A DNA stretch of 63,370 nt, the filler included, from Folioceros fuciformis (taxonomy: Eukaryota), in assembly GCA_049999805.1 (NCBI GenBank). It is 5 parts of 5 records of this genome, joined end to end, with 100 filler letters (N's around TTAATTAATTAA, not from the genome) between each part and the next. Parts side by side here need not be neighbours in the genome. Positions count along the whole stretch, not along the records: positions 1 to 26,954 come from JBNGIO010004449.1; 4 more parts are not named here. One strand, written 5' to 3'. The stretch's first letter is position 1. Each line of letters opens with the position of its first letter. This document shows, piece after piece, positions 2,855 to 51,862 of the stretch. The translations under genes and the position numbers were made by a program. The notes under the pieces were generated by a model. It did not search any database. It was not told the DNA's origin and was given only the letters and a program-made list of their open reading frames with translations.

Positions 2855-3644
2855 TTTCTTCTCTTCACACATGATGCAGACAAAGAGAGGCTGTTGCCGG
2901 ATCACACAAGACAATCAAACAGCGGCCAAGCATGAGCCATCCGGCCCTGGGGAATCACAGGGCAGACATGGAAGGGAGAATTGCTATGATTCCGGGGCCG
3001 GACTGCCATACGTTACATGCTCAGGCGTCGGTGCGTGAGAAATGGCACCACATTGCAAAGATACAGGAGAAACCGGACTTGGTAGAAATGAGTATCAGAG
3101 ATGTCGAGGGAGACATGGGGGCAGGGTTGAGCAAGATGGAAAGTCACGCACGCCAGAGTAGCAAGGGTAGCCAGCCTACCACAAGCAAGCAAATTGTGAC
3201 CAAAGCCGATGGCGTTCAAGAGGCCCTCCACGGGCTCCTGATGCTCCGCACTCAAACAAAGCCTCTCAAATCTCAGCTCATTTAGGTGTAGCCTACCGTC
3301 TGAATTGGCTCCTTTGGCAAACAACTACCCTGCATTCCCGAGCCCCAAAAATAACCTAAGTAAAAAACCCCGGAAAAACCTGCACAAGGCAACCGCTGGT
3401 GAAATGGCGATGGTGTCCTCGTCAAGTCAGAAGCCTATGATCTGATGGTACAGTCTCGGCCAGGGAGTGAAGACACTGCAAGATAGTGCATCCAAGCACA
3501 GGCTGCACAGCATGAAACACAAGCACAGCAGTACAGCACCGCCGTTGCACTCAAAGCTCGCACTATTGAGACAATCTGAGTGCAAGAGAGGTGCTGCAAT
3601 GCATGCAAAGGCCTTGTCTAAAGCTCGTCCCTCCCTTGCCGCAA

Positions 3645-4202
3645 TCAATCTCTCTTCCTCCGCTTCTTCTTCTTCCTCTTCGTCTCCGCAGGTTCTTCCT
3701 CCTCGTCTTCCTCTTCCGCGTCCTCATCTCTCCTTCGTTCTGCAGTCTTCGGTTGAAGGTCCTCCGGCAAATCATCATCCAATACTGGCCTGAGCTTGGG
3801 ATTCTTGAGCTGCTGCGTCCTGGAGGGGCGGGACATGTACACCCTCTCATTCTTACACTCGTAAGTCCAGTGGCCGGGTTGGCAGCACTTCTGACACACC
3901 ATCCTGTGCTGTCCCCCGCCATCCCCTGCCTTCACAGACTTAAGATCCTTCCGCACCCCGAGCTTCACGGCCTTCTCCGTGCTCATGAGATACATCTGCC
4001 GCTTGGCTTCCTTCCGCTCCTGCCATCGGCTGGGGCCTTCCTCCTTCTGCCCATACGCGTTCACATTCCGAGCTGCCGCAGCAGCGGCCCGCTCCGCTTG
4101 CGCCCTGCTCAGGCCCTTGGCCGCGCTCAGAGCTGCTGCCTTGATCCTGTCCGCAGCCGCAGCCGCAGCATCCGCATTCTCCTTCTTTGTCGCCATCGCC
4201 AA
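3645..4202 (-). CDS. Zinc-knuckle (CCHC) protein, ZCCHC10-like
   Basis: Single-exon 185-aa ORF with CQKCCQPGHWTYECKNERVYMSRPSRTQQLKNPKL and an acidic/basic tail. Confidence 0.85.
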   Translation of the reverse strand: MAMATKKENADAAAAAADRIKAAALSAAKGLSRAQAERAAAAAARNVNAYGQKEEGPSRWQERKEAKRQMYLMSTEKAVKLGVRKDLKSVKAGDGGGQHRMVCQKCCQPGHWTYECKNERVYMSRPSRTQQLKNPKLRPVLDDDLPEDLQPKTAERRRDEDAEEEDEEEEPAETKRKKKKRRKRD

Positions 4203-4280
4203 TGCTTTCCCGCGACTACTGTAGATCGAATAACGAGCAATTCCGGAGCGGACTCGTTCGGGCAGAATCGTCTGTGGAAT

Positions 4281-4313
4281 TTTAGGGTTTCAGCGAATCG
4301 GAGTTTATAAATA
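4281..4313. promoter_or_regulatory. Telo-box (TTAGGGTTT) and TATA box (TATAAATA, 4306-4313) in a 180-bp divergent intergenic region
   Basis: Motifs read directly between the head-to-head start codons at 4202 (-) and 4383 (+). Confidence 0.5.
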
Positions 4314-4382
4314 GGAGCAACGATTCCACAATCGAGAACACGTTGTGAAGAATGCATTGAGTATGCCCGGGTGCAGAGCGAC

Positions 4383-5414
4383 ATGGCTCAGGACCACAAT
4401 GACGTGTTTGCGCGGGAGGAACCGCAGAAGCGGTCCGAGATCTACACCTACGATGCCCCCTGGCTGATCTATGGCATGAACTGGAGCGTGCGCAAGGACA
4501 AGAAATTTCGGCTCGCTATCGGCAGTTTCCTCGAGGAAATCAACAACAAGGTGGAAATCGTGCAACTGGATGATGAGACTGGGGATTTCAAAGCGGACCC
4601 TAAGCTGTCTTTCGACCATCCTTACCCAACGACGAAGATCATGTTCATCCCGGACAAGGAGTGTCAGAAGCCTGACCTGTTGGCCACCACGGGGGATTAT
4701 CTGCGGATTTGGCAAGTGCACGACGAGCAAGTAGAGCCTAAGAGCCTGCTGAACAACAACAAGCACAGCGAGTTCTGTGCCCCTCTCACCTCCTTTGACT
4801 GGAATGAGGCGGAACCGAAGCGGGTGGGTACCTCCAGCATAGATACCACTTGTACTATTTGGGACATTGAGAAGGAGGTGGTGGACACTCAGCTCATCGC
4901 TCACGACAAGGAGGTTTATGACATTGCATGGGGAGGAGCCGGAGTGTTTGCTTCCGTGTCTGCAGACGGTTCGGTGCGGGTTTTCGATTTGCGGGACAAG
5001 GAGCACTCCACCATCATCTACGAGAGTCCTCAGCCTGATACCCCGCTCTTGAGGCTCGGGTGGAACAAGCAGGATCCCCGCTACATGGCTACAATTCTTA
5101 TGGACAACTCGAAGGTTGTGGTTTTGGATATCAGGTATCCGACTTTGCCTGTGGCTGAGCTTAAACGGCATCAGGCATGCGTGAACGCGGTGGCCTGGGC
5201 TCCTCACAGCTCCTGCCACATATGCACTGCAGGAGATGACTCCCAGGCTCTCATTTGGGACCTGTCCACCATGAGCCAGCCGGTGGACGGGGGCTTGGAC
5301 CCCATTCTAGCCTACACTGCCGGAGCCGAGATTTACCAGCTGCAGTGGTCCTCTACTCAGCCGGACTGGGTTGCTATAGCTTTCTCCAAGAAGCTGCAGA
5401 TCTTACGGGTGTGA
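4383..5414 (+). CDS. LWD1: WD40-repeat protein of the LWD/AN11/TTG1 (DCAF7) family
   Basis: Intronless [64 protein letters not shown]-terminal KLQILRV. First ATG at 4383. Confidence 0.93.
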
Positions 5415-6134
5415 ACGCCGCCTCCAGATTTAGGACTAACGCACACTTTGATATGGCTGTTCTCAGAGGGTTTGCGAGGACGTCGGCTGTTATCTCTCGG
5501 CAACACTGGGTGTAGGCCAGTATTCATTTGAAACAGTAGGACGATCCTCCTGCCCGGCAGCGTGGGACCGTCACGGTCTTCCTGGTAGCTATCCTCTTGG
5601 GTCGACGCATATGGTTGCCATGTCAGTTATTCTACCCATGTGAACCTTCGGTGGGAGGTTCCATGGTCCGTTTGACGTTCCCACGGAGTTGCCTTTGTCA
5701 TCCCTGTGGAGGGATGATCCTTGTTGCCCTTCTCTCAATTGAGCACAGCAGATGTGCTGGTGGTGTCAAGGCTGACGGGTGGAAGCGCTGGTGGTCTGGG
5801 AGCAACTTCCGCAGAGGATGACAAAGACTTCGTCTGTCTGTCCTGCCAGAAGGATGAAAGGATGCCAGTCGACCCATTCAATTCGCCAGTTGGCAAACGT
5901 TTGATCGCCTTGACCTATTGAAACACGTTTTCCTGCATTTAGATGAGCTGTAGTTGACGACTTCTTGCCTAATGCTGTGCCTGCCCCCATGTAGCCTGTC
6001 CTTCGGTGCTTGTCACATTGTCTGTAAACACGCCTACGACCGTTGGACCTGACACCTCGAGTTGGTCGTCGGCCGTGGCTTTGACGCAGGGCAGCCGGAA
6101 GTGGTGTATCCCACGGCTCACACTGTCGCAACCT

Positions 6135-6180
6135 TGCCCAGGGCCCAGGGCTCGCCATTGTCAGGACTGGGCCCTGGGCA
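6135..6180. repeat. 14-bp perfect inverted repeat with an 18-nt spacer, containing TGGGCC site-II-like motifs
   Basis: tgcccagggcccag (6135-6148) and ctgggccctgggca (6167-6180). Confidence 0.7.
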
Positions 6181-6438
6181 TGGAAAGGAAAGACATCAGC
6201 CCTGGCCTAGGCAGAACAAGGGCGAGCCTGTCCTCAAGCCTCGAGGACATAAACTGCCTATTTGATTTTGTTGAATAGGTATAAATACATACATTAACTT
6301 AAAACACTTTCACTTCCTTCTCTTGGAATCCGTGAACTTGAATCCGATGTGAAGTTACTTAAATAACAATAATGAAAGCCGACCAACCGTTTGACCGCAG
6401 AGTCACAGAGCCCATCGTGGATTGAATGCTGTTACAAA

Positions 6439-8742
6439 ATGTTGGTGGCGCAGGAGGTCTTGCGGCAGCAACTCTCCTCTAGTGCTACACAGTACTACTT
6501 CTTCAAGGCAAGCAAAAGAACTGCCCACCATTACGACTTCAGGTACAGGACCCCCAACGAGGTGCAATGGCTGAGCAAAAACGGTGGTGGTTCCATGTGG
6601 AAGGCAAGGAGTGCAGGCTATTTGGTGGCTGAAACTTTGAGCCCAGGTTGTGAGGATGCGGGGTTGAAGGAAGCTGTTGAAGCTCTAGATCTCCTTGTGC
6701 AGCGAGGTTCTGACGTTGACACCTCTCTGTTTTATGGTGTTTTGAAACGATGCAGGAAGGACTTGCTGCTTTGCAGGCGGATCCATGCCATTGCTGCAAG
6801 AACTGGGCACGAGTTAGACCCGTTCTTAGCTAACCACATCATTGCCATGTATGCTTCTCACAAGAGGTTGGAGGAAGCAAGGCAAGTCTTTACTAAGGTT
6901 GCCAAGCCAAATGCCTATATGTGGGCTTCCATCAGTTTGGCGTATGCGCAGCACGGGCAGCCCACCGAGGCTATAGATCTGTACCGACAGATGAGGAAAT
7001 CGGCAGTGAAGGCAGACAGCCACGTGTTTGTGGCCGTCCTCAAGGCTTGCTCCAGTGCGGAGGATCTGGTGTGCGGGAAGGAGGTGCATGCGGAAGTTCT
7101 GGCCAGTGGCATGAAGGCTAACATGTTTGTCGGCAGCAGCCTGGTGAACATGTATGCGAAGTGCGGGCGGTTGCAGGATGCTCGCAGAGTTTTCGATAGT
7201 TTGGTCGACAAGGATGTGGTGACGTGGACGACCATGGTCTCTGGTTATGCGCAGAATGGGTTCGTTGGAGAAGCTCTGGCACTGTATGACGGAATGCAAC
7301 AGGAAGGGCTGTCGTCAGCTGATCCCGTTATGTATGTGTGCCTCGTGAATGCATGTGCGACATTCCGAGATCTGCAAAAAGGGAAGGAGCTTCATGCAGT
7401 GATTCGTGCGAGTGGTCTGGAAAGTGATGTGTCTGTTGGGAATTGCCTTGTTGATATGTATTCAAAGTGTGGGAGCTTGGAAGAGGCTCGCGCAGTGTTC
7501 GACAGATTGTCCAACAGAGATGTTGTCACCTGGAATGCCATGATTGCAGGATACTCGCAGCATGGACAGGGTGCCGAGGCACTGGCTTTGCACAGGAAGA
7601 TGGATGACGAATGTGGAGGTCCGGCTGATGAAGTTACGTTTGTTTGCCTTCTTCAGGCATGTGCTGATGTTGGAGCGCTGCATCAGGGAAGAGAGCTTCA
7701 TGGACAGACTCGTGAACGAGGCCTAGATTCGAGGGTGTATGTCGGTAGTAGCTTGGTTGACATGTATGCAAAGTGTGGGAGCATGGAGGAGGCTCGTCGA
7801 GTGTTTGACAACTTGTCCACCAAAGATGTCGTGACATGGAATGCGTTGCTCAATGGCTATTCCGAAAACGGCGAAGCTCATAAGGCTATGCAGTGTTTCG
7901 AATACATGTATCAGGAAGGTTTTGTTCCTAACGAAGCTACCTTTACTTGCCTTCTGGCCGCATGCAGTCACTTAGGCCTGGTCCAGGAAGGGCAGCGGTG
8001 TTTTAGAATCATGCTGGAGGAGCATGGTATTGAGCCCAGTGAGAGTCACTATAACTGCATGGTTGATCTTCTTGGGCGGGCAGGGCACCTCGCAGAAGCA
8101 GAGGTTATCTTGCGTACTATGGTTTGTGAGAAGAATGTGGTGGGGTGGACTTCACTTTTAAGTGCCTGCAAAAGCCACAATGATTTCGAGCGGGGCAAGC
8201 GCTGCTTCGACCATCTTGTGGAATTGGAACCTGAAAGCGCATCTGCGTATGTCCTCTTAGGTAATATCTATGCAAATGCTAGCAAGTGGAATGATGTGGA
8301 CCGAATAGAGAGCCTGAGGAAGTCTGCACAGGCGTGGAAGAAGCCTGCAAAGGTGTCCATTGAAGTGGGACGCAAGGTGCACGAGTTCACAGTGGGAGAG
8401 GACAGATGTGACGTTGCATCAAAGCTGGAGAGTGTGAACCGGAGGTTGAAAGAGGAAGGTGGGCATGTAGCACAAACAGCGTTGGTGCTGAGGGCAGTAT
8501 CTGAGCAGGAGAAGGAAGATGCTTTGTGTGGACATGCAGAAAAACTTGCCTTGGCATTCGGTCTGCTGAATACGCCCGATGGCACACCTTTGCTGGTTAC
8601 AAAAAATCTTCGCATGTGCAATGACTGCCACAGCAGCACCAAGATCATGTCACGTCTTGAACGGCGAGAGATAATAGTGAGAGATGCCCATCGAGTGCAT
8701 CGTTTCCGGGATGGGTCATGTTCATGTATGGACAGGCATTAA
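6439..8742 (+). CDS. PLS-class PPR protein with E1/E2 and a DYW:KP-type deaminase domain ending in DRH (candidate U-to-C organellar RNA editing factor)
   Basis: P-L-S triplets (SLVNMYAKCG, DVVTWNAMI), WKKPAKVSIEVG in place of the PG box, HAEKLALAFGL, CNDCH and terminal CSCMDRH. First in-frame ATG at 6439. Confidence 0.95.
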   Translation: MLVAQEVLRQQLSSSATQYYFFKASKRTAHHYDFRYRTPNEVQWLSKNGGGSMWKARSAGYLVAETLSPGCEDAGLKEAVEALDLLVQRGSDVDTSLFYGVLKRCRKDLLLCRRIHAIAARTGHELDPFLANHIIAMYASHKRLEEARQVFTKVAKPNAYMWASISLAYAQHGQPTEAIDLYRQMRKSAVKADSHVFVAVLKACSSAEDLVCGKEVHAEVLASGMKANMFVGSSLVNMYAKCGRLQDARRVFDSLVDKDVVTWTTMVSGYAQNGFVGEALALYDGMQQEGLSSADPVMYVCLVNACATFRDLQKGKELHAVIRASGLESDVSVGNCLVDMYSKCGSLEEARAVFDRLSNRDVVTWNAMIAGYSQHGQGAEALALHRKMDDECGGPADEVTFVCLLQACADVGALHQGRELHGQTRERGLDSRVYVGSSLVDMYAKCGSMEEARRVFDNLSTKDVVTWNALLNGYSENGEAHKAMQCFEYMYQEGFVPNEATFTCLLAACSHLGLVQEGQRCFRIMLEEHGIEPSESHYNCMVDLLGRAGHLAEAEVILRTMVCEKNVVGWTSLLSACKSHNDFERGKRCFDHLVELEPESASAYVLLGNIYANASKWNDVDRIESLRKSAQAWKKPAKVSIEVGRKVHEFTVGEDRCDVASKLESVNRRLKEEGGHVAQTALVLRAVSEQEKEDALCGHAEKLALAFGLLNTPDGTPLLVTKNLRMCNDCHSSTKIMSRLERREIIVRDAHRVHRFRDGSCSCMDRH

Positions 8743-9639
8743 CAGCAAGCTGTGCGTCCATCCTTTCCAGGACTCTGCCCCCATAAGGAGATAGCAAGAT
8801 GGCCCAATTCATCTTTCCTCGAGCTTTTGTCAAATTGTAAAGCAAGTTACCGAGTTATATCTTGCCCTGCAAAGGTGTCATGTCCGTAAGGCCATGTGAG
8901 CCTTACCTTACCTGGCCCTCATATCCGACTGTATGGTCTGATGCGAAGGTCAGGCGTCCCTGACATCGCATATGACCTTGTTTGATTGGCAAGGGTTTTC
9001 GGTACAGGGCTGGAGCTATGGTTGGTCACCCCGCATATCAGCAATCATCGCCAGATTCAGAGGAGTTGGATCCACACCACACATAGGCCAATCCACTGCG
9101 GAGGTAGGTTCTCGCCATTCCTTCATTCCTCTGTCCCCTGTTCTTTCTTCAGGCATTTTAATAGGCTAGATTTTAGCAACTCCAAATCTCACGAACTTTT
9201 GACATGGTTCTTTCCAGTGGCTCACTGGCTCTTGATTATTTCCGTCACCGAGGACTCATGCGTTGAAGGCATTTTGCCAGACTTGTTGCTGTAGCATCTC
9301 CATAAGCGACGATTTTCAGCAGCGAACTATCCGGAGTGGCAGGTTCAGTGTGCACCTCACTCTTCCAGTTGGCAATGCTTAAGTGACCATCATCCACATT
9401 GTAAATTCTGTTTCTCTGCATTGTGCATTTGTTGCTTCCCACTCTGAAGTTGGGATGCCCACTTGTATGTGTCTGCAGGAGGAACGCGAGTGCCCATGCT
9501 GACAGAGTGCCCTTTAAGGTCAGATGTGGTGGGCAGCTTTTTCTGCTTGCACATAAATCTTTCCTAGCAGTGTAGGGCGTCCAGATGTGACCAGTTTCGG
9601 CAATTGTGCAGGCGCTTTTGCAGCCTTGCGTGCATGCGG

Positions 9640-11406
9640 TCACGCCCGATGTTTTGTATCACCAACCAGAAATGTATGCACCAGTCCGTCCGTGTCAGTC
9701 CAAGAACTTTGGCCTGGCTGCTTCCATGCCCCAAATCCTTTTCTCCTTACCTGCATCTCCTCTGCATCCTGCCACATCTCGGCACCAGTATATACACTCG
9801 ACATCAACACATATGCTGCAGGATCGTTTTCTTCTAGCTTCACTGCTTCACGGAATGCAAGGCGTCCCACCTCCACATTGCACCACTTTCGACAAGCACC
9901 CAGCAGAGTGCGCCAAACTGCAGCGTCAGGTTGCACAGGCATTGTTTTCACAATCGCCAGTGCCTCGTCTAGTTGGCCTGCACGACCCAGGAGATCCACC
10001 AGACATGAAAAGTGATCCCTGGTGGGACTGATGCCGTATTCTCGGCTCATCGCGTCGAAGTACTCTCGCCCCTTGTTGACAAGACCCGCATGACTGCAGG
10101 CTGTTAGCAGGCTGAGGAAGGTGATCCTGTCTGGCTCTACACCATGCTGTTTCATTTCGTGTATCAAGTCAAATATGATCTCACTACCTCCTTGACGGGT
10201 GTATCCCGCAATCAACGCACTCCAGGAGACGATATCTTTTTTGGGCAATGCATCAAAAACCTCCTGTGCATCACTCATGCTTCCGGATTTTGCATACATC
10301 TCCATCAAACTGGTGGCTACAGTCACATCATGTTGCAGTCCTTGTTCCTCAATCTGCGCATGAAGCTGCCTTCCGACTTGCAAAGCCGCCACGTCTGCAC
10401 ATGCCTGTAGGAGAGACACAAATGTTATAATGCTGGGTGCGAGGCCTCCCTGTTCCTGCATAGCACGATACAGGCGAAGGGCTTCCTCACCCTTCCCGTG
10501 TTGAGAACATCCTGCTATCATGGCATTCCACGTTACTACATCTTTTCGAGTGAGGCCATCAAACACTCGTTGAGCATCTTCCAAGCTGCCACACTTTGCG
10601 TACATGTCAACCAAGCAATTGCAAACATACGAATCAGGCTCAACCTCACTGGCCAGAACATCAGCATGAACCTGTTGCCCAGCTTTCAAGTCTGCTCCCC
10701 TTGCACAAGCCTGCAAGACGGCTACAAACACATGCGCATCTGGCTTCACCCCTGACCTTCGCATCAGACCATACAGTCGGATGGCATGTTTGGCCTCTCC
10801 ATGTTGCACATGCGCAGATATTATGGAAGACCACATGAAGGCATCTGGTTTGGTAACCACGGTGAACACATCCATAGCCTCTTGCAGCCTGGCATGGGAA
10901 GCATACATTCGCAGGATGTGGTTGCACAAGAACGTGTCCGAATCGTACCCAATTCTCACACTGAGACCATGAACGCACCGACCGAGAACTAGATCCCTCT
11001 CACTCACACATTTCTGGAGAACAGCATAAATCAGAGCAGTTGAAATGAGACCACTTGTCTGCACCAGAATTCCCAGAGCCTCAACGGCCTCCCTGAGATG
11101 CCCCTGCTCACATAATCTGCCCACTGTTTCAGCCGTTACTGCACCTGCAGGCCTGCATGTATGAGCACTCGTAGGGGCACCACGAACCATTAGCATATCA
11201 AGAGGTGCTGGATTGTGCAATTTATTTACTCGGGGGACCTGCTGGAAGCCAGGCCAACGGGAACTCCTGTTCTGTTTCCAGTAATCCCACCCAAGTTCAT
11301 TCACCAGGATCTTTTCCTCAATCCTCGTCCTGGATCTCAGCTCAGCGGGAGCTGCTAAGCAAACAGCTTGACGAATGTCTAAGCACCTCCCCAACAAGAG
11401 GTCCAT
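9640..11406 (-). CDS. PLS-class PPR protein with E1/E2 and a truncated WW-like box (no intact deaminase)
   Basis: 588-aa ORF with PLS triplets and E motifs (AAVWRTLLGACRKW, AAYVLMSSVY), ending WKQPGQSSWTDTDGLVHTFLVGDTKHRA*. Confidence 0.92.
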   Translation of the reverse strand: MDLLLGRCLDIRQAVCLAAPAELRSRTRIEEKILVNELGWDYWKQNRSSRWPGFQQVPRVNKLHNPAPLDMLMVRGAPTSAHTCRPAGAVTAETVGRLCEQGHLREAVEALGILVQTSGLISTALIYAVLQKCVSERDLVLGRCVHGLSVRIGYDSDTFLCNHILRMYASHARLQEAMDVFTVVTKPDAFMWSSIISAHVQHGEAKHAIRLYGLMRRSGVKPDAHVFVAVLQACARGADLKAGQQVHADVLASEVEPDSYVCNCLVDMYAKCGSLEDAQRVFDGLTRKDVVTWNAMIAGCSQHGKGEEALRLYRAMQEQGGLAPSIITFVSLLQACADVAALQVGRQLHAQIEEQGLQHDVTVATSLMEMYAKSGSMSDAQEVFDALPKKDIVSWSALIAGYTRQGGSEIIFDLIHEMKQHGVEPDRITFLSLLTACSHAGLVNKGREYFDAMSREYGISPTRDHFSCLVDLLGRAGQLDEALAIVKTMPVQPDAAVWRTLLGACRKWCNVEVGRLAFREAVKLEENDPAAYVLMSSVYTGAEMWQDAEEMQVRRKGFGAWKQPGQSSWTDTDGLVHTFLVGDTKHRA

Positions 11407-11568
11407 GACTCGCTTGAGAGCACTAACTGTTGAGTCAAGCCTCAGAAAAATCCTTGGTAGTCCTCCACTGCATGTGGAGGCGACAGGCTGTGATCTATTC
11501 TGGAGGAACTGTTACAATTTTTTACTTCGTCACGAGCGCTGAGGCTTCCCTCCGAACGGTGATGCTGC

Positions 11569-14500
11569 ATGCGCTTGTACATACCGATGTTTAGAGCGCA
11601 CCTTCAGCGATCATCAAAAGTCCGAATTGCAAGGCCATCCATGCACATAACGTGTGGAGCTGAACGCAACAACTCTGAACGGTCTAGGTTTTGTTCGTCG
11701 CTACGGTGAGGACCTGTTTCTGAATGTGCAAAGGTGTTTGATGTCAAAACGTAATGGATATGCTATAGCTAACCGTAGATCCGTATGTAGCCTGTTGTAC
11801 ACATGTGTTTAGCAAAATGTTCTTGTGACAGTGCCCTGAAACGTGCAGAGTCAAGCATGAAGCAGGTAATGAGGAGCGATGCTGGAGCAAACAACTTAAC
11901 GAAGGGGAGCTCGGTCAAGCTGTTGGTGCTTTGGAGCTAATTGTGCAGCACGGATCTTGTCCTCCTGGGTCGCTCTTTGTTGAGGCTCTCAAGCTATGTA
12001 TTGCAAAGAAAGATTTGGTTCTTGGCAGAGGCATCCACGCCTTTGCTGTAAAATGTGGCTACGAGTCAAACAGGTTTATGGCCAACCACATCATACGCAT
12101 GTACGCTTCTCAGGGGAAGTTACAGGAAGCTTACCAGGTGTTCGGCAATCTCGTGGCTCCAAACGCTCATTCATGGTCTTCCATTATCTCGGGCTATGCA
12201 GAACATGGTCAGCCTGCCCAAGCTATACAATTTTACTGGAGGATGCGGCAGTCGACTGTCATGCCAGACAACCATGTGTTTGCAGCTGTTCTTAAGGCAT
12301 GTGCTAACACAGCGGATTTGAGATCAGGCAGGAAGATTCATGCTGATGTTCTGAGATGTGCAGAGGAACCCATTGAGTTCGTTGGGAGCTGCCTTGTCGA
12401 CATGTATGCAAAGTGTGGGAGCTTGGATGATGCTCGCGCAGTGTTCAATAGCCTGACGAGTAGAGATGTTGTTACCTGGAATGCCATGCTCACGGGATAT
12501 GTGCAGCAAGGTCTGTCGCTGGAAGCACTCTCTCTTTACACCAGCATGCAGAAGGAGGTCACCGCTCCAGCTGACCAGGTCACATTTGTGTGCCTTTTGA
12601 AAGCATGTGGTATCAGCGCGACACTCGTTCAAGGGAAGCGGCTTCACTCTCAGATTCAAGAAAGAGGTCTCGAAAATGATGTGGTGATTGGGAGCTGCTT
12701 AGTGGACATGTATGCAAAATGTGGGTGCTTGGATGAAGCTCGCAGCGTGTTTGACAAGCTATTGTTTAGGGATGTGGTCACTTGGACAGCCATGATTGCT
12801 GGATACGCTCAACGTGGGCTGGGGCAAGAAGCCCTTGCTCTTTTTGCACGTATGCAACTTGAGGGCGTATTTCCAGCTGATTATGTTGCTTTTGTGTGCC
12901 TCCTCAGAGCTTGCTCATCCATCGGAGCATTAGATCAAGGTAGGCATCTTCATTTTCAGATTTTGGAACAGGGTATGCAAGGTGACGTTGCTGTTGGCAG
13001 CTGCTTGGTGGACATGTATTCCAAATGTGGCAAATTAGACACCGCCCGCAGCGTGTTCGACAATCTGGTGAAGAAAAACGTTGTGACATGGAATGCCATG
13101 CTCGCTGGATATGCTCAGCATGGGCTGGGTCTAGAAGCCCTCAACCTCTATGCAACAATGCTGAAGGAAAACATCACGACAGCTGATCATGTTACATTTG
13201 TTTGTCTCCTGAAAGCATGTGCCAGCATTGCAGCTATACATCAGGGAAAGCAGCTGCATCTGCAGATACAAGAGCGGGGACTGGAATCTGATTTGGTCAT
13301 TGGCAATTGCCTGGTGGACATGTATGTAAAATGTGGTTGCTTAGTTGATGCCCGGAGGGTGTTTAACATTATGTCCACAAGAGATGTGGTAACTTGGAAC
13401 GCCATGCTGGCAGGATATGCTCACCACGGCCTTGGTCAAGAAGCCCTTGCGCTTCATGAAAGTATGCAGCATGAAGGCATCACTCCAGCGGGTGAAATTA
13501 CATTTGCTTGCCTCCTGAGAGCCTGTGCTAGTATTGGAGCATTAGACCAAGGAAAGCAGTTGCATGCCCAGGTTCAAGACGAATGTCTGGAGTGTGATTC
13601 AGTTGTTGCAAGCTGCCTGGTGGACATGTACGCACGATGCGGGAGCTTAGATGATGCCCGCAAGGTGTTTGATAACTTAGCCAAAAAGGATTTGGTAACG
13701 TGGAATTCCATGCTCGCGGGATATGCCCTCCATGGGCTTGGCCACGATGCTCTTGCTCTGTACACAGATATGGAACATGAAGGTGTCATTGCGGCAGATC
13801 ACGCTACGTTTGTGTGCTTGCTGAAAGCATGTGCCAGCATTTCAGCACTACCTCAGGGGATACAAATTCATGCTCAGATTCAGGAAAGGGGGCTTGAATC
13901 TCATATGGTTGTGGGTAGCTGTTTGGTGTACATGTACGCCAAATGTGGGAGCTTAGAAGCAGCCCAAAGGGTCTTTGACAATCTTACAATAAAAGACATC
14001 GTGACCTGGAATGCAATGCTATCAGGATATGCTCAGCATGGATTCACTCTGAAGGCCCTGGAATGCTATGAGAAAATGCTGTTGTCAAACATCAATCCAA
14101 ATGGAGTCACGTTCTTATCCCTCATTTCTGCATGCAGTCATGCAGGCGAAGTGGATAAGGGTCTTGAGTACTTTAGATCTATGAGCGCAGTTCACAGCAT
14201 GACTCCAGACATTGAACATCATGTGAGCATGTTAGACCTCTTTGGCCGTGCAGGACGCTTCGTTCTGTTAGAGGACTGGCTGTCGAAGATGCCAATGGAG
14301 CCTGATCTGGCAACGTGGCTGTGTGTGCTTGGTGCGTGCCGGAAGCATGGGAACATCACGCTCGGACAACAGGCCTTCAGTCGTGCAATACAACTGCAGC
14401 CAAAGCACCCTGCTGCATATGTGCTGATGTCACATATCTATGCAGATGCTGGCCTTCCGGACAGCGCAAAGAGGGTGGAGAACCTGAGAAAGAGGGAGCG

Positions 14501-14651
14501 TGCTTGGAAAGAGCCCGGACGGAGCTGGATTCAGCATGAGCAAGAAGCACACAGCTTTCTGGTCGGAGACCGAAGCCACCCACAAAACGAACAGCTGTAC
14601 GACCTCTTAGAGAAGGTCAGTTCACAGCTGAAGATAGCAGGGCACATCTGA
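11569..14651 (+). CDS. PLS-class PPR protein, E+ type (PG box, no DYW catalytic core); predicted two exons 11569-11705 and 11849-14651
   Basis: Long PLS array ending KEPGRSWIQHEQEAHSFLVGDRSHPQNEQLYDLLEKVSSQLKIAGHI*. The ORF has no upstream ATG (in-frame stop at 11826), but a phase-2 GTGAG...GTGCAG intron joins an R/S-rich, transit-peptide-like first exon (MRLYIPMFRAHLQRSSKVRIARPS...) in frame. Confidence 0.92.
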
Positions 14652-15990
14652 CGCATGGGGGCTACAGGGGATCATCAATCTCATACGCTGGCGAGACAAC
14701 ATCTGCCTAGGTGAGCCATTTGTTGATTCTGAGGTCAGTCAAACATCTCGTCGGGGACCTGTGTCCTATGTTTTCTCTATGTCTCAGCCAGTGGATACCT
14801 TTTACACGGCTTCCCAGACTAGTTCCATGTGCATGCTCTGGAAAGGCACCAGAACTTCCGGTACCAGAGGACAAAATATTGTGAGTCGCATTGTTCTCGC
14901 TTGCATGTTGGTGGGTCTTGAACTCCGCACCAGTACGTGAGGTATTCTCACGACCGTTGCACACCGCCGCAGGCTGCCACAACCCATGCTCCAGACGCAA
15001 CAGGCAACCAATTGGTAAGGAAGTCTGATTGCTATTCACTCCTCCAAACCACCTGACGCAGACATGGAGTCCAGTTACAGCTGAACCTCCAGCAAGAACA
15101 CTATCCTTGTACTACATGCCTCACTGCCTTGTTCACTGCCTCACAGCACTATCCTTTTACGCCATCAGTTTATATACCCTGCAGCTGATAGTTCACCGCC
15201 TTTCTGCCCGAGACGTGAAAACAAAGAAGGAGAGCTGGGATGCTTACTGTGTGTGTTCCCTCGTGGTGCCTTGTACAGGCTTATGAGAAATAGCCCGGTT
15301 CTCACTTTTCGTCACCCATGATCCTTGTTCATCTATCCAGATATGAGACTGGATGTGACGCACAACTTGACTACTTTGCTGGACTCTTGGGATACCTCTG
15401 ATTCCGAACCAAAAACTTAGGCACCAGTCCTTGAATGTTTGTCCATTGCCCCCGTTGACGCTCTGGCAGTCTCCTCCTTGGTTTTGTTTTTGTTTTTATT
15501 TTTAAAACATGAACTCTGTCATAATTTATTCTTATACTGTTTTTTATTTATTTTAATAAAACAAGATGAAAATCATCAAGATTGGGACATGAGGGAAATA
15601 AATCATGAGAGATATATACGGAAGAAACCGTAAACCATTTAATTTAGAGCTAATAATTTTTTATTGAAAATATTTTTTTTGTCAAACAAAAAATAGGCAG
15701 GGGACGGGGATGGGTTAATCCGAGAGTTCTTATACATTTGGCCTAAGCATGGCCTCCCTATGTATTTACACAAGGCTGGATTAAGCATCAACAAGAAGCA
15801 TATTCTAAACACTTCAACTAAAGAAAACGTATGTTAAAATTTATCAAATTATTTTTATAACTCATCTCTAATCATGTAATATTGTACTAATAATATATTG
15901 TGATATAATATTGTAGTAATAATTATACATTGATGAAATCATATTCGATCTGCTGTTCATCCTCTCATTTATCAATAAGGCATGTTAGCT

Positions 15991-16458
15991 CTAAGTAAAC
16001 ATGTACCCTACAAAACAATCTTCAACTTGAAAATATGCAAAAAACATTTTAGCACAGAGTTTTCCTATTAGCTCATTACAAATGTATTGAAGACAAGTTT
16101 TACATTGCAATTTGGTGAACATGGTGCTATCTTGTTGATAACATGCTACCGAGACATGGAAGTTAGATGGAATACTTGTTTCACTTGTTAGCATTTCAGT
16201 TTTGTAATCCAAAGAAGTATCAAGATAATTAGGAAATCTTGTCTCAGCCTTTTCAATCGCTTGAGCCAATGCATAATTCACAAATTCCGTTATTACATCA
16301 GAATCGACGTATCCCTGGCATTCTTGATCTCTAACTTTGACATTAGGGGGAAGCTCTGGGCCATAAACTTCAGAACCAACCTTGCCAAAAGATGAGAATG
16401 CAAGCAGTAGTGCAACAACATAAAGTGCAGCAACATAAAGTCCTCTTGAGGTGTCCAT
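15991..16458 (-). CDS. Secreted cysteine-rich protein, Gnk2/DUF26 (stress-antifungal)-like
   Basis: Signal peptide (MDTSRGLYVAALYVVALLLAFSSFG) and the Cys pattern C-x12-C-x2-C...C...A...C-x3-Y, resembling DUF26 (canonical C-x8-C-x2-C). Alternative ATG at 16482. Confidence 0.55.
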   Translation of the reverse strand: MDTSRGLYVAALYVVALLLAFSSFGKVGSEVYGPELPPNVKVRDQECQGYVDSDVITEFVNYALAQAIEKAETRFPNYLDTSLDYKTEMLTSETSIPSNFHVSVACYQQDSTMFTKLQCKTCLQYICNELIGKLCAKMFFAYFQVEDCFVGYMFT

Positions 16459-44020: not shown

Positions 44021-47000
44021 CTACTGCATTTGCTTCCGGCGGGAAGCCCCCCCCATATCTGATCTTGGCCGCTTTACAGGATTTGGAACTCCAACGTCCA
44101 ACCTCGACCTTGACGGGTCCTGTGACGCACCACCTGCACCGCCCAGGCGGGACGCGCCAACAACAAGAGACTGCTGTGATGAAGTACTCTTGCCTGTCGC
44201 ACTGGCTGCATTCCTGCCTGCTTCCTTCCCCTCTTCAAAGCTCGGTTGTCGTCTGCTACTGGAACTACGTTGGTTCTTACTCCTACTAGAACTTGCCGGC
44301 ATTACACTACCATTACTCTCCCCCTTCCTTTTGTCAGTCTGAAACAAGCTTCTATTGTCCACCTTGCGTAGCTGATTACGCTTCTTCTTATGGACCACAA
44401 GATCGAGCGGATGCACTGGTTCCCTACTAGTGAGCTCTTCTTCATCATCTATTTTTTTTGTACTTCTACTATCAGGCCTTCCCGATCTTTTCTTCTCCTT
44501 GGAACTGGCAGCCCTTGCAGGCTCAGGCTCCTCAGCCTTCCTATCTTCCATCTTTCTCTTGTTTTTTCCTGGCACATTCTGGGGAATTTCTGGAGGGTCA
44601 TCATCGACATCTGAAGGAACTGCCTGCTGACGCACCTTTGGGGGTTTTTGTCCAGGGATCCATGCTCCTGACACTGGGGGTGGCGCAGTCTCATTTGGGA
44701 TTCCAGTTGGTTGTTGCCGTCTCCTGGTTAAAGCGGCAGCTGGAGGGGCAGCCATCTTTGTCTTCACAGAGGTGAAATCAACATCAGGAAACATAAGCTC
44801 CATACGTTGGAAGAACACTATTTGCAGGCGACGGGCATCGCTTAGAACCTGCTTGGGACATGAGATTTGTTACCACACGTGAACCAACAAGTATACATCA
44901 ATTTGAGCATTCCCCAAAGGCGAAAACTCACCTCAGTTGCATTAGCATGATACCGCACAGCATTGTCAAGCATAAGTTGCACATCTGCGGCGAAGTCAAG
45001 GACTCCGCCGTATCCAAAGTGATCGAGTCGCTCCTCAATAGTATGAACATCCACAGGGCGAGAGATGATAGTATAATAATCCGGACAGGCACTAAGCTTT
45101 GGAAGCTCTGTGAATAACTCAGCATTGACAGCTCCTTGCAACTTTTTGAGTGCCGCTTTACACTGCAAAGAGAACAAACAGACGAAACAAGCCATTCTTA
45201 ACATGCATCTCAACTCACTATAAGCTTAAGCTCTCTGCTCTTGTACCACCTGTCAATCATACCCAAAATGCTTCAAGAATCAGCCAAAAATTGAAACATA
45301 CAACCACACCTTTTTTTGTGTGCTCTCTGGCATCCGTCCCGTGACAGCACTCCAGGTTGGAATGCCACTAAGAGGCAGGATCCCCTTCATAGTTCTAGCT
45401 TCCCCTCCTTCGTAAACATCTTCCACAGGCTCTTGAAATCCATTGGCCCAGTTCGTATGTTTGAACACCATACGGGGTCGCTGACCTGGAAGTGCTTCTG
45501 GTACCACGTCTTCCAGACCTGGAAACATCGAATGTCTCCGCTTGGCAAATCCTCCCCACTGCTCAGTCCTCTCAAAGTACCCATCCTCATTGCCAACATA
45601 CGCACCAAATCCTGGTCCCTGAAGAATGCCTTGACCACTGTATGCTGGCCTAGGCGCAAATTGCACAGGAACAGCAGAAAATAGTTCGGCACCCTTATTG
45701 TTCTTCCCAGAGTCTATGAAAGCTTTACTCCGATTGCGTTTAGTGCGCTTGTTCTTTTTTCGAGGTTGAATGACTTGTTCCTCTTCAGCATCCTCTGCCA
45801 ATTGCATCCAGCTCCCTGTCCTATGAGTACCAGAATCACCAGATGCTGCAATCTCACCCTCCTCCAAATCCTCAGCCTGTCCACACAAAAGACATCCATC
45901 AAGACTCTGAAAACGACTGGAAACAAGACACAACACAGCTGAAATGCAGACGCAGTAATACGGGTTTTGCAAGATCGGCTGCATACCAGTTCCTGCCTCA
46001 GTGGATTGCTTTCCACAGCCGCCACGGATTCAAACCCATGTCCTTGACCAGGCAAATCATTCATATTGAAGCACTCCCATTGAGTTTCACCATCCTCCGA
46101 TGATGCATTGGCTGCTGGATCGTCTTGATCTTCCATTTCCTCATCTAACTCTTGTTCTAAAACTTCTTCAGACTCGTCCACTACAACCACAGCTTCATCC
46201 CCTCCTTCTACTTGACCCTCATCTTCGATCTCTCCCTCCTCATTACCCTCATCAGACAATTCCTCATCATTTCCTCCTACAATTTCCCCCTCTTCCTCCT
46301 CATCAAATTCCACAACATCTTCTACCTCTTCTTCAATCACTGCTTCCTCCTGATCTCTCTTTCGTTTGCCGCGTGTCATAGCACTGACTGACTTTGTACC
46401 ACTGCTCGGCAGACCCCTATGATTAAGCAAACCCTTCCCCTTTACTTTTGCAGCTTTGGCAAGCAACTTCTCTTCTGCTTCTCTTGTACCAATGGTCCCT
46501 ACTAGCCCCTTCTTGAGGGCTTGCTTCGAAGTTGCGGCTATTGCCGCGTTCACCTCTTGGGAACCTACTCTAAGCCACTTTGGAACCTGCTGGTACTTCA
46601 GCAGCTCCCCTGGCCAATCATATTCTTCGTCCATCTGATCAAATAGCTCAACTTCCTCGTCAGTGCGGGCTATCATGCGATTCAATTCTTGCAAGCTAGG
46701 AACATCATGCACAGATTCCTGATATCTTTCCTCATCATGTAGGAGAGCTTCAAGTGTTAGGCGGCGTTCCTCTTGGGTAGTTCTTTGATCAAACCGTCCA
46801 GCATTTATAACCTCATCTGCCATGTCAATTTTGTGTTGTTGAATGTTATTACGCACAAGACTCTCTACTGAGCCCATGTACCTGTCCTTGCCAGCCATGT
46901 CATCATCATCATCTACTGTCCCTCCGCTCCTTAACTCATCCTCCTTTTCATAGCTGGGATTAGTCTCCACCACCGCTTCAAGGTACAAGACCTTAACTTC

Positions 47001-50000
47001 CCGCTTCTGCCCAATCCGATGGGCACGAGCCACTGCTTGTTCTTCATTTTTGGGATTTGGATCAGGGTCATATATCACAACAGTATCGGCAGACTGCAGG
47101 TTCAGGCCCCTACCAGCAGCCCTAATGCTGAGCAAAAAAATAAAACAATCTGACCCAGGCCGATTGAATTCCACAATTGCATCCTCCCGAGAATCTAAGG
47201 AGGTAGTACCATCAATCCTTCGATATGCAAATCGCCGCCACTGCAAATACTCCTCCAAAATATCCAACAATCTAGTCATCGTACTGAATAGAAGGACACG
47301 ATGACCGGTCCTGTGAAGTTTAACTAAGACCCTATCCAGAACCCATAGTTTTCCACAGGATCGGACAATACTTTCAGTAAGATGATAACCTCGTGGAGGA
47401 TAATTTAAGTACGGATGATTGCACACCTTCCTCAGCTCCATGCATTTGTTTTGAAGAGGTGCATATGCTCGTGCTGGTCGAGTGGAATTTCCTCCAGCAA
47501 GTCTCTGAGCCTCATCTTGAGGATCCAAGCGGATTGTTCCAGTTGCTTTCACCCAATCGTATATGGCTGCTTGGAAAGCTGACATCTTGCACTTCAAAAC
47601 TACAGAGACCTGTTTCCATAAGCCGGTACACACGGCAACACATTAGACGGCATTTACACACCATTCGCTGTATTCAAGACTTACAAAAAACCATGAAACT
47701 AACCCACCTTTGGAGGTAAAGAGCCCTCAACATCCTCAACTCGCCGTCGGAGCACAAAGGGCTCCAATATCTGGTGCAGCCTGTGTATGATAATTACTTT
47801 CTTCTCAGTCTCCAGCCAGTCATCTTCGTCATTCTGATTGGATGTATCCTTTTGAAATGGTTTTGAAAACCACTCATGGAAAGCTCGGCTACTGTCAAAC
47901 ACCTCAGGCAGTAGCAAGTTCAATAGAGACCAAAGTTCGTGGAGATCATTCTGAAGAGCAAACACACAAAAATAAGAACCCTCCCATATCCATGAACCTT
48001 AGCCATGAGTAAGCATGCAAGCACTTATCACAGATTTTCACCTGTAACGGAGTGCCTGTAAGAAGCAATCGTCTTTGGCATCGAAATCGGTCCAAATCGC
48101 GTGCAAGACGGGATTCCCTGTCTTTCATACGCTGTGCTTCATCTATAATGATGTACTTCCAGTCGACCTTTGACAGTTTGGAGCGATCTCGCATGATAAA
48201 CTCATACGTAGTAACCAAGACGTTGAACTTCATGGCATTGACCTCCTGCAATTGCAACTTGATTTCAGAGATAACCACAGCTTTGATTTGAATGAACAAA
48301 TCAAACAAGTCCAGTGTGCTGTAGCTCTACAGTGCAAAAGCTTTGGCCACTGCAACAGTGGACCAACCTGCTGGTATATTTTTGAGCGTTGGTCCTTTAC
48401 ACCAACATAGAAAATACAAGAGACAGATGGCAGCCATCGCAGCAGTTCACTCTGCACAAAAGGAAACATTAGACCATGGGTGCGGTGTCTCTACCACTGT
48501 AGCAGAACCCCTGAGGCTTCGCAGGACCGGTACAAATACAGCATCCAAGTAGGTTATCTCATCGACATTTACCTTCCAATTTACAATTACAGCATTAGGC
48601 ACAATGATTAGATGAGGCCCATAGTTCCCCTTGAACTCCATGAGGTACGCAATCAGTGCCATTACCTGTGACAGGACAACAGAGGAGCGATGGGCACCAG
48701 AAAATACTGTCTATCCAGGTTCACACTGAACCATATCCATATACTCTAAATCACCAGCTACTATCAAAGATTAGTCTAAGGCACAATACAAAATGATCAG
48801 TAATGACCCATCAGGCGGAGTACTCGGAACTTGAGAGACTACACACACCTGCACAGTCTTTCCTAGGCCCATCTCATCAGCAAGGATACCATTCAATCGA
48901 TTATTGTACAATGAAAGCATCCACTGTAACCCCACCTGAGATCACCACCACAAAAATGAGCAACACATGCAATGCTGGGCTAAACTTGAAAGCGAACTTT
49001 GGCCAGAACCTCAGGAAATGTTGAGACCGCTTACAAGCTGATAATCACGTAAAGTGCCAGCCCGTAACATGGAAGGTTGCCTGGCGATATGCTCACTAAC
49101 AGCATGAGCCAGAGAATAATACCTGCAGACAGGTGAGAGACAACAAATAAGGCTATCAGCCAATGTGACTGACGTAGAGACATGTCAAAACCTTTGAAAC
49201 CATGTCCCCAACCTGACATATCTAAAGAGCTTACTTGTTTACAGACGTGTGCCTAGGTGTGTCTCCTTCGGAATCCCACCCTTTCGATGCAAACTGCTCC
49301 CCTGCACGGGTTGAAGCCTCCTGAACTTCCTCCTCTGAGAGGCCCTGCCCACGTGACCAGCCATTGTACACTACACATCAGCAAAGGCTTCAGAGTGGGA
49401 GATAACACAACCGCCGCCTGAACCAACGTCTACCTGAGCCCTGGCGGATGCAGCAGCTGCAAGTTTCGCTTCTTCCATCTCCTGAAGATTTTTCACAGCC
49501 GAAATCTTGCCACCTAGTTTATGAAGGTAGTCCTCTGTCTGTGACAAAAAAGAGGATAAAACCTCAAAGCGCTCGCCTGCATCACCCGGCATTTGTGTTT
49601 GTTGTTGAAACAACATTTGCCGATAGGCATCCACATCATTGTTCTTCAGAGCCTCCATTCTCTTGGTTCGGTCCTCATCCTTCTTCTTCGAGAACTCCCT
49701 TAGCATCCTCTCATGATACTTTGCAACCCCCCTGTTACGAGTAGTTCTTGCATCTCGAGTAGCCCACTGAGACTCCAGGAGCTTCTTTCTCCATTGAAGC
49801 AAAGACTTGAGCTGCTTATCTTTAGCAGCCCTCTGCTGAGCTATAACATGCCTTAGTAAATCTGCACGCTGTCTTTCACAAAGCCTGACAAACTTCCTGT
49901 ATGCCCTTTCCCCCATAGCCATGATCTCCTGCTGCTGGTCTTCCACGTCATCCCTTATTTTAGCTTGAAGATCCATTAAGCGAAGCTTTCGCTGTTCAAT

Positions 50001-51862
50001 ACGCAGCCTCACAACAAGATCTGACGATATTTGCCGACTCTCAGGGGAATTCAAAATTGCATCGATCTCAGACAGCTTCTCCACTCTCTTCTTTTCAACT
50101 ACTCTCAAGCCCTCCTCCAGCAACATCTCCCTCACACTGTATCCTAAACGGACAGGACCTCCCCAAAGGCCTGTTTGTGGGGCTCCGTCAGGCTTCCTTC
50201 CAACAAAAGGGTAGTCAAACAGAGGACCCTGATACCGAATACGCCCTTCTGCTAGAACCTTTGGCACAACAGGAGCTATGGGAGGAGCAGGGGAAAGGCT
50301 CAGAACATCCGCAGAGCTCCTGATGCCACCAACCTCAACCTTCACGTCTGGTGCAGGTACCTGAACCTTATTGACTTCAAATCTCTGATTCTGCCCCGCA
50401 TTCGGTACTGCAGCCTGATCAGGTCTCATCAACAAGGCCTGCGAAGTTGCCGGCTCAGACTTCACGATTCTGCTCATCGCTACTGGAAGCACTCCACCAT
50501 CCTGGCCCTTGGTGATGGCTGGGCCAGACGAGTACTTCTGGATCTCAGGATGAGAAACAGGAAACGACTGTTTTTGCTTTTCAGTGTCCGGCAGACCTTT
50601 CTTTTGTTCTCCCTCATCCTTCACGGTCTCAGTTGGCTTTGTGGCTGCTGTAGCAAACTGATGCTTGGCTACTACCACGGGCTTTTTATTCGCACCATCA
50701 ACTTTCGATGGCGCAGGGTGGACCTCATTTTGAGTTAGCGCAGAAGCAGGAGACCCAGCAGCGCGGTCATGTGACTGCCCCGAATTGGCACCTGAGGGTA
50801 CTCCAGCCAGTACTGGTGCCCGGGTATCACCTGAAAGTGACCAATCATTTGTTGGTCCTGTCAGAGGGGCTGGAGTGATGGATCGAAGAAGTTCTGCTTG
50901 GAGCGATTTGTCACCTCGCTGCCAAAGGACAGAAGTATGTCAGATACCAAACGGGAAAAGATGGAAGTCAAGTAGGAGAAAGGATTCAGCGAGTTAGCCC
51001 AATCAGACGTTGATATCATACTTTGATCCTCCGGAATGCCAAAATTTGAGAGCGCAACACTTGCAACTGTTGTCTAGTAAAGCCGTATCCGTGTTGCTGC
51101 TCCGGCACCGGCTGCTCATCTTGCTGCTGCTGCTTGAGTGACTGTGTCTGCCCGGGCAGCTTCTGGCTATTTGATGGCGCAGGAGGTGAATGTGATGGGG
51201 GCTGCTGCTCCTGATGCTTTGACAACTGCTGCTGCTGCTGCTTAGCCTGCTCCGGCTGCTTCGACCGCTGGGAGAATGGCTGGAGCTGATGGGGGAATTG
51301 CTGAGGCTGCTGCTGAAACTGTTGAGTATGCTGCTGGAATTGCTGCGGCTGTTGCGGAAACTGCTGGGCCTGCTGCTGATATAGCTGAGACTGTTGCTGA
51401 AACTGCAGGGAATGCTGCTGATGCTGCGGCGCAACATATTGATGCTGTGGTAGTTGTTGTAATGCTTGCTTATGGGCCTGCAGTTGGGCCTGGCGCTGAG
51501 CCTGTAACTGTAAGTGTTGCGCTTGCTGCTGCTGGGGCTGTGAGTGCTGCGCTTGTTGCTGCTGCTGAGCCTGTAGCTGTTGCGCTTGCTGCTGCTGCTG
51601 GGCCTGTAGCTGCTGGGCTTGCTGCTGCTGCTGGGCCTGTACCTGCTGCGCTTGCTGCTGCTGAGCCTGTAACTGCTGCGCTTGCTGCTGCTTGGCCTGA
51701 AACTGCTGCGCTTGCTGCTGCTGAGCCTGTAGCTGCTGCACTTGCTGCTGCTGGGCCTGAAGCTGCTGCACTTGCTGCTGCTGGGCCTGAAGCTGTTGCA
51801 CTTGCTGCTGTTGGGCTTGAAGCTGCTGCGCTTGATGCTGCTGCTGCGCCTGAAGCTGCTGG
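44021..51862 (-). CDS. BRM: SWI2/SNF2 chromatin-remodelling ATPase BRAHMA (QLQ, HSA, ATPase/helicase, bromodomain); 5' end lost at the scaffold end
   Basis: QLQ ([21 protein letters not shown]), HSA-like ([16 protein letters not shown]), [54 protein letters not shown], and a bromodomain ([12 protein letters not shown]...[12 protein letters not shown]). Confidence 0.96.
51520..51862 (-). repeat. 30-33-bp coding tandem repeat (QQQQ-A/V-QQLQA) in the BRM N-terminus, about 10 copies, running into the gap
   Basis: Repeated cagcagcagcaagYgcagcagctWcaggcY units. Confidence 0.9.

Follow-up and report, generated by a model that had tools for sequence, protein, structure and literature searches.

Pentatricopeptide repeat (PPR) editing factors with a DYW domain of the PG type—here Arabidopsis OTP86 (7o4e/7o4f) and DYW1 (7w86), the consensus PPR-DYW protein 9kfx, and moss PPR56—have hydrolytic C-to-U conversion as their documented chemistry. 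Domains of the KP type are confined to hornworts, lycophytes, and ferns (PMC11845758, PMC9478123, PMC13386178) and are found only in lineages with U-to-C editing (PMC13386178, PMC11845758). Here we analyze a gene for a protein of this kind in Folioceros fuciformis, located at 6439–8742 (+) of a 63,370-nucleotide stretch of assembled DNA (GCA_049999805.1; the whole stretch is referred to as the window). An earlier reading of the bare sequence, hereafter the original prediction, had proposed an intact DYW:KP/'DRH' PPR gene encoding a native U-to-C factor, and its statement that KP domains are limited to hornworts, certain lycophytes, and ferns matches the sources above. Our results are best explained if the locus is a nuclear gene, most likely of a hornwort, that encodes a specificity factor for RNA editing in organelles and belongs to the DRH subgroup of the DYW:KP class.

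KP domains are defined by a Lys-Pro pair in place of Pro-Gly at the domain start, by more varied C-termini, and by Ala or Cys after the catalytic His (PMC11845758, PMC9478123). Most of them lack the xHP residues and measure 132–133 residues, as compared to 136 for the PG domain (PMC9478123, PMC11845758), and M92 in KP domains contrasts with V95 in PG domains (PMC9478123). In hornworts, the KP subgroups are DRH and GRP (PMC11845758, PMC9478123), the former being a name that PMC9478123 credits to Gerke et al. 2020 and Gutmann et al. 2020. Of seven consensus KP designs, three were reported in 2022 to perform U-to-C editing in E. coli and human cells, namely the GRP-based KP2 and KP3 and the fern-based KP6; with KP2 and KP3 in E. 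coli, C-to-U conversion was undetectable (PMC9478123), and KP6 carried out both reactions in human cells (PMC9478123, PMC11845758). In KP6, the exchanges L6C, V17T, D47E, D116A, and I119V favored U-to-C, and E64G, L113V, and F133H led to a C-to-U-only enzyme (PMC11845758). As to the nitrogen donor, work of 2024–25 has put forward the enzyme's own Lys88: a Schiff-base mechanism via this lysine has been proposed (PMC11332814), and Lys88 is essential in the designer proteins (PMC11845758). The original prediction had named KP domains as candidates for U-to-C chemistry and called the amino donor unknown: the former is by now shown for KP2, KP3, and KP6, so that to speak of conjecture only is outdated, and the latter has been overtaken by the lysine work.

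The KP family, its distribution, the chemistry of synthetic forms, and the nitrogen-donor model are thus already published. All activity data in the literature searched stem from synthetic consensus proteins—KP2, KP3, and KP6 being consensus sequences placed on a designed PPR tract—and we found no native KP factor with a characterized function there; a review of December 2025 describes synthetic KP editors only (PMC12733224). U-to-C is, within the same literature, the one pyrimidine transition without a characterized natural enzyme. What makes the DRH subgroup particularly interesting is that the design built on its consensus is missing from the list of active ones, and a native gene of the DRH type that is intact, seems to be transcribed, and has a defined repeat code can serve for tests. 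The present gene is of practical rather than conceptual value, as a test construct: hornworts offer very many equivalent candidates, and nothing that we found sets this copy apart.

The gene consists of a single open reading frame (ORF) of 767 codons, stop-free up to a TAA at 8740–8742, with its first ATG at 6439 and in-frame stops upstream (Table 1 lists all features). When its 2304 bases were put through 500 mononucleotide shuffles, the longest run without a stop came to 99 codons on average and to 204 at most. PPR motifs, delimited by hand against the PLS pattern, follow the order partial P, L1, S1, then three times P1-L1-S1, and finally P2, L2, S2, with lengths of 22/33/31, 35/35/31, 36/35/31, 36/35/31, and 35/36/32 residues; repeats of 35–36/35/31 followed by a final P2 of 35, L2 of 36, and S2 of 32 place the protein in the PLS class. 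Pfam PPR families match the tract down to an E-value of 1e-64, and E_motif (PF20431) matches residues 580–637 with 62.5 bits (cut-off: 27.3), a region where an AlphaFold model shows the four helices, arranged as helix pairs, of E1–E2. The DYW_deaminase profile (PF14432) is matched with 121 bits against a cut-off of 24 (E = 1.9e-35), and a tblastn search with the protein's own parts revealed this to be the sole DYW domain in the window. Residues 1–94 match no Pfam family.

We noticed a degenerate PDF-like motif, YDFRYRTPNEVQWLS, in the N-terminal extension (6532–6576; residues 32–46). A fuller form of it, W..FF.DPSQWWDNR..K....PDFKHK.T.E.LW, is present in one to three copies within the first 250 residues of 27 of the 235 proteins compared, among them P0008, P0012, P0122, P0126, P0147, P0195, and P0226, the carriers belonging to lycophytes, liverworts, Sphagnum, and unnamed organisms; the window protein retains only a degenerate remnant of it (YDFRYRTPNEVQWL). 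The fuller motif resembles the 'PDF motif' known from the organellar single-stranded DNA-binding (OSB) proteins of plants.

When numbered from its Lys-Pro pair (K1-P2 = K635-P636), the DYW domain carries K1, P2, S6, T17, A47, G64, H65, A66, E67, K88, M92, C93, C96, V113, A116, V119, D131, R132, and H133. It aligns to DYW sequences of solved structures (9kfx, E = 1.5e-48; 7o4e, E = 3.5e-34; 7w86, E = 4.1e-33), from all three of which—consensus protein, OTP86, and DYW1—it differs by HAE for HSE and by Met for Val before CxxC. Relative to 9kfx, it shows a four-residue gap at the PG-type S-H-P-Q and one extra residue further on, and it therefore spans 133 rather than 136 residues. The Lys-Pro start, this length without xHP, A66, and M92 are all traits of the KP subclass. 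An AlphaFold2 model of residues 567–767 (mean predicted local distance difference test score, pLDDT, 89.8; predicted template modeling score, pTM, 0.78; dip at model residues 111–130) had 9kfx_A as its best Foldseek match (E = 3.3e-18), along with 7o4f/7o4e (~1e-09) and 7w86 (E = 3.7e-08), and on this confident model the domain is predicted to adopt the deaminase fold. Together with the PF14432 match, the HxE...CxxC signature, and HRFRDGSCSC, this identifies a DYW deaminase domain. The features on which the original prediction had been built—an intact frame, a KP instead of a PG box, a shortened post-box segment, HAE in place of HSE, intact CxxC and HxFxDGxCSC, and a terminal DRH—were all confirmed (motif positions in Table 1).

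For class assignment, we compared the domain to its 120 best database matches, retrieved with residues 600–767. The best of these are 66–77% identical over this stretch; the top 22, all from unnamed sources, include both DRH and GRP termini, with a DRH end in ten of the best 21. A quick maximum-likelihood tree was computed from 144 columns of 120 DYW domains, i.e., the window domain and 119 matches (P0102, whose DYW motif is not C-terminal, was left out); its root was placed arbitrarily on an HSE row, and many of its forks are open. The window domain falls into a 52-row group with a Shimodaira–Hasegawa-like approximate likelihood ratio test (SH-aLRT) value of 99, which takes in all 30 other HAE rows, all 11 DRH ends (window included), all four GRP ends, six of the seven other HxE rows, and just one of the 68 HSE rows. 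The domain is hence separated from 67 of the 68 HSE (PG-type) rows, and clustering with PG domains, the outcome named at the outset as speaking against the prediction, was not what we observed. All five rows nearest to the window domain end in DRH, although the DRH rows do not form one resolved branch in this quick tree (four changes).

Profile hidden Markov models (HMMs) pointed in the same direction. These home-made profiles, trained with the window excluded on groups labeled by motif (ten DRH, four GRP, 12 fern-type KP, and 63 HSE rows with a DYW or DFW terminus), gave the window domain 256.4 bits for DRH, 236.2 for GRP, 190.9 for fern KP, and 159.4 for PG. A PG-versus-KP classification by profile, suggested along with the original prediction, thus ranks DRH highest and PG lowest. 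Three PG rows had their top score under the PG model, which had been trained on them, however. Of 63 columns across E1-E2-DYW with a conservation of at least 85% among 44 KP-clade rows, the window protein agrees at 61, the two deviations being Gly to Ser in E2 and Ala to Val at DYW position 5. With its DRH terminus, DRH-ending nearest tree rows, and a DRH profile as top scorer, the protein is, judged by its sequence, almost certainly a DYW:KP protein of the DRH type.

Its closest described relatives are the hornwort DRH proteins and the KP1 design, with which it shares the KP box, a length of 132/133 residues without xHP, HAE, K88, M92, and the DRH terminus. It departs from its database matches at S6 (theirs is C or A), A47 (D/E), M130 (mostly G), V5, and the Ser in E2, and its PPR tract has no close relative among the matches listed. 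With KP2, KP3, and KP6 it has the domain class, length, HAE, K88, M92, and CxxC in common, but it ends in DRH, whereas KP2 and KP3 end in GRP and KP6 in GD-x-F; the GRP and fern KP profiles trail the DRH profile by 20 and 65 bits, respectively, and fern KP rows carry E64, L113, D116, and F133 where the window protein has G64, V113, A116, and H133. The PG factors, too, share the PLS-E1-E2-DYW architecture, the deaminase fold, both zinc sites, the catalytic Glu, and the active-site Lys. In contrast to the window protein, however, they possess the PG box, the S-H-P segment, HSE, Val before CxxC, and a DYW end—differences mirrored by a PG profile 97 bits below DRH and by the separate tree position.

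PLS motifs read single bases via residues 2, 5, and last, and S2 aligns four nucleotides upstream of the base that is edited (PMC13324415). In this register, the position-5/last pairs of the window protein are NN (–16), AD (–15), VN (–14), SD (–13), TD (–12), VD (–11), ND (–10), ND (–9), VR (–8), SD (–7), NN (–6), TS (–5), and NN (–4). In the PPR code, N at position 5 stands for a pyrimidine and T or S for a purine, while D at the last position stands for G or U and N for A or C. Treating the L-motif pairs (VN, VD, VR, and TS) as uninformative, we predict that the protein would recognize an upstream element 5′-YnnGGnUUnGYnY-3′ (–16 to –4), with three positions left free between it and the edited U.

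Three of eight sequencing runs (X1, X2, X3) contain 0.89–0.94 of the sampled words; X1 and X2 derive from one sample and X3, here taken for RNA, from another study. When mapped over 3000–16000, contigs from all three runs cover the KP gene without differing letters, those of X3 at 6458–7779, thus beginning 19 bases past the ATG, and at 8049–8529. That no single contig spans the gene is explained by k-mers shared among PPR paralogues. One X3 contig (record 21; 1,119 bases) starts within the last 115 bases of the coding sequence and proceeds as 8628–9101, 9216–9338, and 9475–9996, again without differing letters; its joints skip 114 and 136 bases, each time between GT and AG, and for these joints the two DNA-type runs have a depth of 0. 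A spliced RNA of the + strand would produce this pattern. On the + strand, the joined sequence lacks a long ORF (146 residues at most without a stop), and given these joints we read it as a long spliced 3′ untranslated region (UTR) of roughly 1 kb. Introns in the 3′ UTR are unusual in otherwise intron-less PPR genes. The spliced contig suggests, as a moderate hint, that the KP gene is transcribed, and it likewise suggests that its 3′ UTR overlaps the convergent PPR-E gene in antisense, over that gene's final ~357 bases.

A few further observations concern the same mapping. At 6223, an X3 contig has a loose end of 22 letters that occur nowhere in the window, with up to one mismatch allowed. X3 has no depth in 11246–11679 and almost none in 15586–16000, where X1 and X2 reach 6–10; we did not use this as evidence. 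At 10378–11245 and 12114–13415, the summed contig depth of each of the three runs climbs to hundreds or thousands, and loose ends or joints that link the three PPR genes of the locus are seen in many contigs; we attribute both to k-mers shared among very many PPR paralogues.

On balance, we think the protein is probably a native U-to-C editor working through the zinc/Glu67 site and Lys88, with the direction of the chemistry inferred. It would be imported into plastids or mitochondria, where its 15 P, L, and S motifs would read RNA at one base each, with S2 at –4 of the edited base, and where E1–E2 and DYW would build a tunnel that brings the base to the zinc site (H65, C93, and C96, with E67 as acid/base). 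Several points weigh against this assignment. The activity of natural KP proteins was called unknown in 2025 (PMC11845758), and KP1, the mainly DRH-based design, is not named among the active ones in the accessible text of PMC9478123. Lys88 is conserved in PG domains as well (PMC11845758) and consequently is no KP-versus-PG discriminator. The window protein has G64, V113, and H133, the states of the C-to-U-only form of KP6. In its predicted element (–16 to –4), just eight of 13 positions are constrained, L-motif codes being poorly predictive, and no orthologue of its PPR tract (residues 60–560) was found among the 120 best of 7,969 matches (top identity, 48%), so that conservation of the target cannot be argued. 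Finally, that X3 is RNA is a guess, on record for no run, and the contigs are silent on strand, ends, and level. Of the proposal that the gene encodes a native U-to-C factor, the KP/DRH class therefore stands, while the step from DRH to U-to-C is weaker than it assumed, in view of the unnamed KP1 and of G64, V113, and H133. The same facts could mean that this true KP/DRH member acts on C, or in both directions, in vivo and that the DRH type is not a dedicated U-to-C aminase; KP6 does perform both reactions in human cells, and the zinc ligands and catalytic Glu of deamination are intact. We nonetheless judge this unlikely, since GRP-type rows share G64, V113, A116, and V119 with the window protein, and yet KP2 and KP3 convert U to C with undetectable C-to-U in E. 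coli; since T17, A116, and V119, the U-to-C-raising states of KP6, are also present; since KP domains occur only where U-to-C editing does (PMC13386178, PMC11845758); and since effects seen in a fern consensus may not transfer to a hornwort domain. This mixture of T17/A116/V119 and G64/V113/H133, in part common to GRP rows, means that sequence does not settle the direction of catalysis. With still lower odds, the DRH subgroup might be a natural mixed-state KP enzyme, either bidirectional or with its direction set by context or partner, in which case mixed-state DRH proteins would differ in function from KP proteins of the GRP and fern types.

U-to-C editing by the window protein also has to be weighed against explanations in which the gene has no editing role of its own. 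It might be a redundant paralogue of young age within a tandem array of PPR genes, intact and transcribed, yet with no essential site to edit and so neutral or confined to RNA binding: three PLS genes, one KP-type and two PG-derived and truncated, lie within 8.2 kb; the orthologue search for its PPR tract came up empty; two conserved columns are changed, one in E2 (G to S) and one at DYW position 5 (A to V); and hornwort PPR genes number in the thousands, expanded by duplication, with 2,308 in one genome (PMC13386178). We find this rather improbable, because the repeat tracts of the two neighbors are only 43–50% identical to that of the KP gene, so the duplication was not recent, and because 61 of 63 conserved columns, all catalytic residues, and a 767-codon frame have been retained. 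The orthologue search itself scored 8,000 candidates by a summed score that favors long repeat proteins, and was swamped by them—its best 120 matches are long multi-repeat PPR proteins of 32–48% identity from lycophytes, ferns, gymnosperms, and unnamed sources—which makes the absence weak evidence. An unexpressed pseudogene or an assembly artefact is hardly credible: no run is on record as RNA and no transcription start was seen among the contigs, but three runs from two studies contain most of the sampled words, their contigs lie on the gene without differing letters, a spliced X3 contig is contiguous with the end of the coding sequence, and the frame is intact.

Table 1. Features of the KP gene and of the adjoining PLS genes (positions along the window; residue numbers such as Lys88 count from the Lys-Pro pair).
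Feature	Position	Strand	Basis or remark
Complete intron-less coding sequence, PLS-class PPR-E1-E2-DYW:KP protein (P0001)	6439..8742	+	767 codons + TAA
72-residue N-terminal extension before the repeats	6439..6654	+	presumed organelle-targeting presequence
PPR tract, 15 motifs, residues 73–566	6655..8136	+	hand annotation and Pfam PPR, PPR_1, PPR_2, PPR_3
E1 (34 residues) and E2 (34 residues), helix-turn-helix, residues 567–634	8137..8340	+	join repeats to catalytic domain
DYW:KP domain, DRH subgroup, 133 residues (635–767)	8341..8739	+	PF14432, structure matches, tree, HMMs
Lys-Pro pair naming the subclass, instead of Pro-Gly	8341..8346	+	within ...AWKKPAKVSIEV
H65-A66-E67: predicted catalytic zinc ligand, Ala versus PG-type Ser, catalytic Glu	8533..8541	+	sequence, alignment
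Lys88, essential for U-to-C in designer KP proteins	8602..8604	+	position from alignment; role from PMC11845758
Met92 (KP-typical; Val in PG type), then C93-N-D-C96, predicted zinc ligands	8614..8628	+	alignment
CNDC	8617..8628	+	motif position
HRFRDGSCSC, His/Cys cluster of predicted second zinc site	8698..8727	+	role from solved DYW structures (PMC13324415)
C-terminal Asp-Arg-His versus Asp-Tyr-Trp	8731..8739	+	sequence
Probable long spliced 3′ UTR	8743..9996	+	X3 contig; boundaries uncertain by 2–5 bases
PPR-E gene, 588 residues	9640..11406	-	ends ...AWKQPGQSSW...VGDTKHRA
PPR-E+ gene, 906 residues	11931..14651	+	ends ...AWKEPGRSWIQ...GDRSHPQ...IAGHI

The KP gene is flanked by a WD40 gene (4371–5414, +) and by the two other PLS genes of Table 1, both of which retain PG-type box remnants and lack a catalytic DYW core; the E+ subgroup has been called hornwort-enriched (PMC13386178). 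Gene spacing is compact, and the introns, at 114 and 136 bases, are short. The E+ neighbor, the compact spacing, the short introns, and the unnamed top 22 matches with their DRH and GRP termini are indirect signs that suggest a hornwort as the host.

Elsewhere in the window, two ORFs on the minus strand (45714–47633 and 49371–50678) appear to be exons of a large SNF2-type chromatin-remodeling ATPase gene, as indicated by a Helicase_C match (E = 3.8e-24); the second has no Pfam match, its text resembling the upstream part of such a protein. A long ORF at 24319–27006 (+) comprises an S1-like segment, an acidic tandem repeat of TTVAQVPAE-like units, and a C-terminal EF-Ts domain (PF00889, E = 8.3e-29) plus a UBA/TS-N domain, and presumably belongs to a plastid S1-domain/EF-Ts polyprotein gene. 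It is interrupted by N runs: such runs, at about 24.6, 27.0, and 29.3 kb, appear as X in the translations of this ORF and of another at 27884–29677, and, falling within apparent coding regions, they are read as assembly gaps.

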